DNA of 650 nucleotides from Escherichia coli (GCF_003334335.1 NZ_QOWQ01000163.1); one strand, 5' to 3'. Numbered from the stretch's first letter, positions 514 to 650 are shown. Program-made: numbers and translations. Notes: a model not told the origin generated them from the sequence alone.

Positions 514-650
514 ATGTCAACGAAGAACAGAACCCGCAGAACAACAACCCGCAACATCCGCTTTCCTAACCAAATGATTGAACAAATTAACATCGCTCTT
601 GAGCAAAAAGGGTCCGGGAATTTCTCAGCCTGGGTCATTGAAGCCTGCCG
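514..650 (+). CDS. ylcI: Small ribbon-helix-helix (RHH) DNA-binding protein, YlcI/DUF3950-like; N-terminal 45 codons, with the gene continuing beyond the right edge of the window
   Basis: ATG at 514-516 is the first start after an in-frame TGA (496-498) and is preceded by GGGG at 503-506 as a possible weak Shine-Dalgarno. The open frame to the window end translates as MSTKNRTRRTTTRNIRFPNQMIEQINIALEQKGSGNFSAWVIEAC. It has a basic N-terminal tail, a short beta-strand (RNIRFP) and then helix-forming segments (MIEQINIALEQKG, FSAWVIEA), the layout of Arc/MetJ/CopG-type RHH proteins. Its position next to cos and divergent from the Nu1 homologue matches ylcI beside nohD in the E. coli DLP12 prophage. 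The symbol rests on that synteny and on family-level recognition, not on a database hit. Confidence 0.7.
   Translation, partial: MSTKNRTRRTTTRNIRFPNQMIEQINIALEQKGSGNFSAWVIEAC

Follow-up and report, generated by a model that had tools for sequence, protein, structure and literature searches.

The window analyzed here, a stretch of 650 nucleotides from Escherichia coli, is the cos region of a lambda-type phage, reversed relative to the standard map (table 1). At the DNA level it is closest to phages Turner, PhiR11_1, and PhiR68_2 (99.7%); lambda matches at 98.5%. The right end of the mature chromosome corresponds to window position 315 onward. From an ATG at position 514, a plus-strand frame runs stop-free to the end of the window (MSTKNRTRRTTTRNIRFPNQMIEQINIALEQKGSGNFSAWVIEAC), and in the closest records (L001:3514-3708 and L002:3514-3708) it amounts to 64 codons plus a stop, encoding the product MSTKNRTRRTTTRNIRFPNQMIEQINIALEQKGSGNFSAWVIEACRRRLTSEKRAYTSIQSDDG. 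A distance of 199 bp separates the ATG from the right end of the mature chromosome, in agreement with position 48303 of the reference lambda record J02459, which has no annotation there, and 388–389 bp separate it from the start of the small terminase gene Nu1. These distances bear out the earlier note, which placed the gene some 200 bp from cosN, running opposite to Nu1. In lambda, the late operon is on the Nu1 strand. Because the gene is divergent from Nu1, it is, given this established biology, antisense to the late operon, as had also been claimed.

Table 1. Features of the 650-nt window, in window coordinates.
Feature	Position	Strand	Basis
Small terminase subunit Nu1, first 41–42 codons (MEVNKKQLADIFGAS..., MEVNKKQLADIFGASIRTIQNWQEQGMPVLRGGGKGNEVLY)	1..125	-	Translation; annotated terminase small subunit in relatives
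cosN 12-nt cohesive end AGGTCGCCGCCC (reverse complement of GGGCGGCGACCT)	303..314		Sequence; "cos site" annotation in DE3 records
Predicted sigma-70-like site, best in window (GTGACA, 16 nt, TATCAT; 10/12)	350..377	-	Promoter scan
Fur box, perfect 7-1-7 palindrome TGATAATAATTATCA (TGATAAT-N-ATTATCA), 156 bp upstream of the ATG	351..365		Matches published site
Imperfect 13-nt inverted repeat ATCAATTATGACG / CGTATTAATTGAT, candidate operator	412..444		AT-rich spacer (34–35% GC)
Weak Shine-Dalgarno-like GGGG, 7 nt 5' of the ATG	503..506	+	Read from sequence, inferred
YlcI/YnfO-family (DUF3950) gene, codons 1–45 of 64	514..650	+	Stop 58 nt past window end in all close relatives
Predicted DNA-reading beta-strand, codons T12–P18 (TRNIRFP)	547..567	+	Aligns to Arc 9–15 (QFNLRWP)
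DUF3950 match within window, codons 21–45: helix A, loop with NFS motif, helix B (AWVIEAC)	574..650	+	Pfam

A gene of the DUF3950 family

The protein belongs to the DUF3950, or YlcI/YnfO, family, as the earlier note proposed. Profile matches are strong for Pfam DUF3950 (PF13132; E 2.9e-20; residues 21–49, ending 10 nt beyond the window), NCBIfam NF041551 (YlcI_YnfO_N; 37.6 bits against a curated cut-off of 30), and PHROG 949, a function-unknown family (E 2.3e-35; 60 of 61 positions covered), and DUF3950 is the sole domain matched by the window-type protein. Proteins of the family have 55–80 residues, and the window copy has their core, IRF(P)...NFSAWV(I/L)(E/D)AC. Across 22–23 diverse members, I15, R16, F37, and V41 are invariant, and conservation reaches 90% or more at F17, I25, S38, W40, A44, and C45.

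The frame is intact, with neither frameshift nor early stop, in every close relative, including phage Turner, lambda, ylcI of prophage DLP12, and ynfO of prophage Qin. Proteins encoded by lambda and DLP12 are identical to each other and differ from the window type solely in the last few residues. YlcI (b4589) and YnfO (b4533) of K-12 are products of the same gene as that of the window, and share its spacing and the offset of its Fur box. YnfO and copies in Stx phages have different tails past about residue 50; otherwise nothing of substance sets them apart.

Synonymous changes dominate between diverged copies. Over the first 50 codons, the lambda and BP-4795 copies are separated by 18 synonymous and 8 nonsynonymous changes (dN/dS 0.08), the lambda copy and that of the prophage in L007 by 24 and 6 (0.03), and the BP-4795 and L007 copies by 19.5 and 10.5 (0.09), with dN/dS ranging overall from 0.02 to 0.11 between these three types. 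Another 80 loci from IMG/VR, all 97–100% identical to the query, were used to compare spacers and left out of dN/dS. Judged from these substitutions, the gene is under strong purifying selection. The lineages share no sequence upstream of the ATG, where homology begins, and C-terminal tails have been exchanged between lineages past about residue 50, as in YnfO and the Stx-phage copies relative to the lambda type. Therefore, the conserved unit is a domain of 50 residues. We conclude from these comparisons that the frame is a real protein-coding gene of 64 codons and a member of DUF3950/YlcI_YnfO. A terminator-like hairpin inside the gene, on the minus (late-transcript) strand at 534–554, is probably not meaningful, as one was found where 0.7 are expected by chance.

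The gene is common in E. coli. A 251-nt segment that spans its start is present in 3,787 of 5,426 complete genomes (∼70%), in up to 12 places per genome, where it is labeled "YlcI/YnfO family protein" by PGAP. Every type of Stx phage sampled has the gene, and the protein encoded by the window copy is 100% identical to many database entries. The family is narrow: only 141 related clusters were found among 1.84 billion cluster representatives, and many of these are sequencing noise. Relatives in other genera, at 35–45% identity, keep the same conserved residues. Hundreds of frameshifted pseudo-homologues on ∼3.5-kb ENA contigs dominated the first protein search and were left out of alignments; they are probably noisy assemblies of lambda control DNA from nanopore runs. 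Likewise, matches labeled as Staphylococcus aureus, Veillonella, and a Campylobacter phage resemble lambda control or spike-in DNA rather than sequences of real hosts. Gene and family are already catalogued (Pfam, NCBIfam, and PHROGs) and annotated in thousands of genomes. The literature searched assigns no function to the family, consistent with the earlier note.

Location beside packaging modules and in satellites

The location of the gene is conserved. Lambda, Turner, DLP12 (ylcI-nohD), and Qin (ynfO-nohA) all have the gene diverging from the Nu1 homologue at a distance of 389 bp, and DLP12 and Qin, the two decayed prophages of K-12, have each kept it alongside cos and that homologue. In phages of the Stx/BP-4795 type (BP-4795, Stx2a_WGPS2, JLK-2012, and Lys8385Vzw), the gene is between the lysis region and an HK97-like packaging module. 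There it is 41 bp from, and on the opposite strand to, an HNH endonuclease gene that is followed by genes for TerS (Terminase_2) and TerL. This HNH-TerS-TerL module is unrelated to the Nu1/A module, and in both settings the gene directly precedes the packaging genes and runs opposite to the late operon. Because site and orientation are the same at Nu1/A and at HNH-TerS-TerL, the place beside packaging genes is conserved across two nonhomologous modules. A conserved place beside the packaging site had been claimed on the basis of the window; the claim holds for both modules but not as an exclusive association, since family copies also occur away from cos, in phage satellites and chromosomal islands.

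Neighbors on the 3' side vary. Lambda and DLP12 have the oppositely oriented ybcW there, Turner has a 37-codon ORF and bor, and Stx-type phages have an Rz or TonB-like gene, again in the opposite orientation. In Qin (L015 4757-5458), ynfO is followed after 57 bp by ydfO (DUF1398, a homologue of ybcV) on the same strand in an operon-like arrangement. The ylcI-type genes of lambda and DLP12 are separated from the ybcV homologue by the oppositely oriented ybcW. On the side of cos, an ORF of 85 codons (241–498, plus strand) spans cosN; several phage records carry it as a "hypothetical protein" (e.g., Turner CDS0055). In virion DNA it would be in two pieces, and the call is probably spurious.

In satellites, the organization differs from that beside cos. 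In loci L005, L007–L009, L097, L098, and L102, and in the Pasteurella "phage" Pmp7, the DUF3950 gene is on the strand opposite to all other genes. It is located between the integrase/AlpA/Bro-N zone and the primase zone, facing the replication operon, and in L007–L009 two DUF3950 genes are in tandem. The element in L007 (E. coli CP027459, ∼1090–8876; also L008 and L009) is a satellite of the PICI type inserted in terL of a BP-4795-like prophage, which leaves the initial 93 codons of TerL directly next to the integrase gene. PICIs embedded in their helpers have already been described, without discussion of their DUF3950 genes (PMC10111431), and the global repressor of Gram-negative PICIs has been called unclear (PMC6092414). 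The position of the satellite paralogues is analogous to that of Stl and Rpr, the master repressors of Gram-positive PICIs, which are likewise divergent and face the replication module. This likeness, seen here from position and with no sequence relation, concerns the satellite paralogues and not the gene in the window.

In two distant members (P0252 and P0193), DUF3950 is fused to the N-terminal helix-turn-helix (HTH) of a Terminase_2 small terminase (best Pfam E 2.7e-11); only in these is Terminase_2 found, as a C-terminal fusion, and Pfam revealed no homology of the window-type protein to the DNA-binding domain of small terminases (Nu1 and Terminase_2). P0252 also matches PHROG terminase-small families (E 1e-18), and its HTH, encoded by one of the two tandem genes of L007, resembles the N-terminus of TerS of the prophage that carries the satellite. 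The satellite and fusion contexts argue that family members are DNA-binding regulators, possibly with a link to packaging-site DNA.

Two orphan DUF3950 genes are outside prophages. One (L006 6001-6180) directly follows a cytochrome bd-type oxidase operon, and the other (L011 7001-7174) is in the gap that separates fimbrial usher/chaperone genes from a type I restriction-modification system. In Pmp7 (L004, OR544138), a DUF3950 ORF of 59 codons (3000–3180, plus strand) is antisense within a CDS of 224 codons (2583–3257, minus strand) labeled "transcriptional repressor"; one of these two overlapping gene calls is probably wrong.

The upstream spacer and expression

The spacer between cosN and the gene is AT-rich, with a GC content of 34–35% across window positions 351–500. 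At its cos end, cosQ is expected at positions 338–344 (AGGACCC, the reverse complement of GGGTCCT; lambda 48473–48479). The Fur-box palindrome that follows was matched in 0 of 200 shuffles. Lambda, DLP12, Qin, and almost every locus retrieved have it at an unchanged offset, with variation in its central base and flanks. In K-12, its center is 233 bp upstream of the starts of nohA and nohD. A Fur site at −233 of nohA in Qin has been demonstrated by Fur titration (FURTA) in vivo and by gel shift, and a site in DLP12 ("nohB") was predicted at 25.3 bits (Chen et al. 2007, PMC2189734). In the same study, a Fur-controlled promoter was scored at nohA. The palindrome in the window matches the published −233 position; the Fur element is therefore already known, and the "nohA"/"nohB" site is the same element at the same offset. 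In the literature, the site is assigned to the Nu1 homologue (Vassinova and Kozyrev 2000; Chen et al. 2007, PMC2189734), and our search of the text and tables of PMC2189734 found no mention of ynfO or ylcI. What the present analysis adds is that the element is 156 bp upstream of a DUF3950 gene and, in lambda proper, beside cosQ.

The Fur box overlaps the highest-scoring sigma-70-like site of the window, from which transcription would run toward cosN and Nu1. The scan of the window identified no plus-strand sigma-70 promoter upstream of the ATG, and inspection by eye found poor candidates alone. The inverted repeat at 412–444 and a short palindrome read by eye (TTGATctgcATCAA, 441–454), both 60–100 bp 5' of the ATG, could serve as operators or bind a nucleoid protein. 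A search of Rfam returned nothing near threshold.

Published transcript counts provide a view of expression in a lysogen. RNAtag-Seq, the library method behind the counts from BL21(DE3), is reportedly strand-specific. In the vector control, mean counts are 1 for ECD_RS03870, 303 for bor, and 23 for lom (PMC7827196 Table S2); we checked that ECD_RS03870 is the copy in lambda DE3. When T4 MotB is overexpressed, which perturbs H-NS and turns on prophage genes, counts increase from 1 to 133 for the lambda DE3 copy and from 33 to 84 for the DLP12 copy, and a 168-fold rise is given for YlcI-type counts, all from one study in which these two near-identical copies may share reads (PMC7827196). Counts for ybcV and ybcW of lambda DE3 increase from 0 to ∼300 with MotB, and bor is on throughout (PMC7827196). 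A compilation of K-12 RNA-seq data lists ybcW-ylcI as a pair of convergent, overlapping transcripts (PMC12288877).

The earlier note considered expression from the prophage possible. The mean count of 1 for the lambda DE3 copy, against 303 for bor, does not support this: the BL21(DE3) counts speak against appreciable expression from a repressed prophage and fit silencing of the AT-rich region. They suggest that the cos-proximal accessory block is silenced in the lysogen, probably by H-NS. Comparison with the lambda morons bor and ybcV (lambdap78) is instructive. These are on the same anti-late strand and in the same AT-rich region between the lysis genes and cos. Like the YlcI-type gene, ybcV is near zero in the DE3 lysogen and increases strongly upon perturbation of H-NS, whereas bor is expressed. 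The YlcI-type gene also differs from bor and ybcV in that its position is kept much more broadly, even in phages with neither of them.

Fold and candidate functions

The protein is likely to adopt a ribbon-helix-helix (RHH) fold. An AlphaFold2 model of the monomer (pLDDT 69) has an extended N-terminus and helices at residues 19–32 and 34–60. All 23 of its Foldseek neighbors in the PDB are RHH or RHH-like (NikR, Arc, ArtA, ParD2, and TCP), each at E of at least 1.6; further structural neighbors are CopASO and Rv0298. In hhalign, residues 11–33 align to residues 8–30 of Arc at E 0.016, or 0.01 for Arc and Mnt combined, values that are not significant. In this alignment (NIRFPNQMIEQI... to NLRWPREVLDLV...), R16 falls on R13 and N14 on N11 of Arc, which are base-contacting residues. 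Within the predicted strand, I15, R16, and F17 vary little or not at all among family members, and the conserved residues fit the RHH pattern of an alternating strand, a serine N-cap, and hydrophobic helix faces. Several members also have subthreshold PHROG matches to Arc-like repressors and the HicB RHH domain (E 0.02–0.2). Conversely, 22 members scanned against Pfam RHH families yielded no match at E ≤0.1, and searches of PDB sequences with the protein and two family profiles returned chance matches alone (uL16, short pAgo, and NSP3). A single-chain tandem "dimer" modeled in AlphaFold2 with a paired alignment had a pLDDT of 42.5 and no strands, and is uninformative on the ribbon. Thus, the RHH layout described in the earlier note is favored by the structural neighbors, all of them RHH, and by the alignment to Arc and Mnt, but none of the scores is strong and the Pfam RHH families give no match.

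Arc and Mnt of phage P22 are the closest known parallels. They too are small and phage-encoded, with an N-terminal strand of alternating polar and hydrophobic residues, a proline, and two helices. Arc is among the top structural matches. Neither the pairwise sequence alignment (E ∼0.01) nor the Foldseek match (E above 1) is significant. The differences are that the genes for Arc and Mnt are in the immI region rather than on the cos side, and that DNA binding, dimerization, and operators are only predicted for the YlcI type. RHH antitoxin domains of the CopG, ParD, and HicB types are weakly similar in sequence and structure; these have a toxin partner, and the YlcI-type gene has no conserved one.

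We favor, with moderate confidence, the interpretation that the gene encodes a small, dimeric DNA-binding regulator of the RHH type, a phage accessory expressed at a low level against late transcription and directed at its own or a neighboring promoter. Such a small, basic protein would bind DNA as a dimer. The N-terminal strand (T12, N14, and the invariant R16) would enter the major groove, as in Arc and Mnt, and helices 19–32 and 34–50 would form the dimer core. The protein would act as a sequence-specific transcriptional regulator, most probably as a low-level repressor whose target is its own AT-rich promoter region, a neighboring promoter, or both. As an accessory, moron-like gene, it would be outside the packaging machine, and its low expression would probably be set by silencing of the AT-rich, cos-proximal spacer and perhaps by the Fur site within it. 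The predicted reading strands of lambda-type and Stx-type proteins are identical, and the same DNA target is therefore expected, but a search for an operator common to the flanks of the two types found chance-level 9–12-mers alone.

The same lack of a common motif weighs against a role in packaging. According to this alternative, the protein binds at or near cos, or at a cos-proximal promoter such as that at 350–377, and limits terminase expression or access to the prophage cos in lysogens, or modulates the initiation or termination of packaging. The shared place and orientation beside two unrelated packaging modules, the fusion of distant members to a small-terminase HTH, and retention with cos and the Nu1 homologue in both decayed prophages of K-12 are all in its favor. 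Nevertheless, other family copies are far from cos, in satellites next to int and alpA and in chromosomal islands. Short cos fragments are packaged in cosmids, and DNA is packaged in vitro with terminase, IHF, and proheads, without a YlcI-type gene; therefore, the gene is not needed in cis and is not essential in trans. We regard this role as unlikely, though the most credible of the alternatives. More doubtful still is that DUF3950 proteins are maintenance regulators of Gram-negative PICIs and that the copy of the helper interferes with, or is sensed by, satellites. The divergent and sometimes tandem paralogues facing the replication operon, the unclear identity of the global repressor of these PICIs (PMC6092414), and the resemblance of the P0252 HTH to TerS of the carrier prophage are consistent with such cross-talk. 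The argument is one of synteny, however, and phage and satellite copies are 35–45% identical and differ at the predicted base-contact positions.

The protein could instead be an orphan or unrecognized RHH antitoxin of a toxin-antitoxin pair, a reading to which the weak PHROG matches to HicB-like domains, the presence of ParD2, CopASO, and Rv0298 among structural neighbors, and the 57-bp spacing of ydfO behind ynfO in Qin lend some weight. We rejected it as highly improbable because no partner is conserved: downstream genes differ between lambda, Turner, Qin, and Stx-type phages. In addition, the C-terminal tail, which in antitoxins is the toxin-binding part, is the least conserved region and is swapped between lineages, and the window protein matches none of the PADLOC models of defense systems. 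The least credible reading is that the frame is nonfunctional, being open by chance or conserved for a cis-acting role of DNA or RNA near cos. A weak Shine-Dalgarno sequence, no clear promoter, very low read counts in the lysogen, and the missing annotation in J02459 might be cited for it, but the excess of synonymous over nonsynonymous changes (18–25 vs. 6–10) effectively refutes it. It is also at odds with relatives in other genera that have the same conserved residues at 35–45% identity, with homology that starts at the ATG while upstream flanks differ, and with the lack of an Rfam match.

A broader proposal, drawn from sequence context and offered as a long shot, would make DUF3950 a class of RHH regulators at the interface of phage, satellite, and packaging. 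Its members would include maintenance repressors of Gram-negative PICIs, some with an HTH of the helper TerS type. Copies on the cos side of lambdoid phages would control a cos-proximal promoter region governed by Fur and H-NS. Through it, they would hold back the expression of terminase or the cutting of cos in the lysogen, or mediate cross-talk with satellites.

As a discovery, the gene is ordinary, because its family is catalogued and routinely annotated. Yet lambda is the best-studied temperate phage, and it has a cos-side gene without an assigned function. The value of the analysis is in the sharper tests allowed by a fixed site at two packaging modules, paralogues in PICIs, and a published Fur site (nohA of Qin). 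A regulator acting near the packaging site, if that is what the gene encodes, could affect the stability of prophages, the control of terminase, or the mobilization of satellites in pathogenic E. coli.
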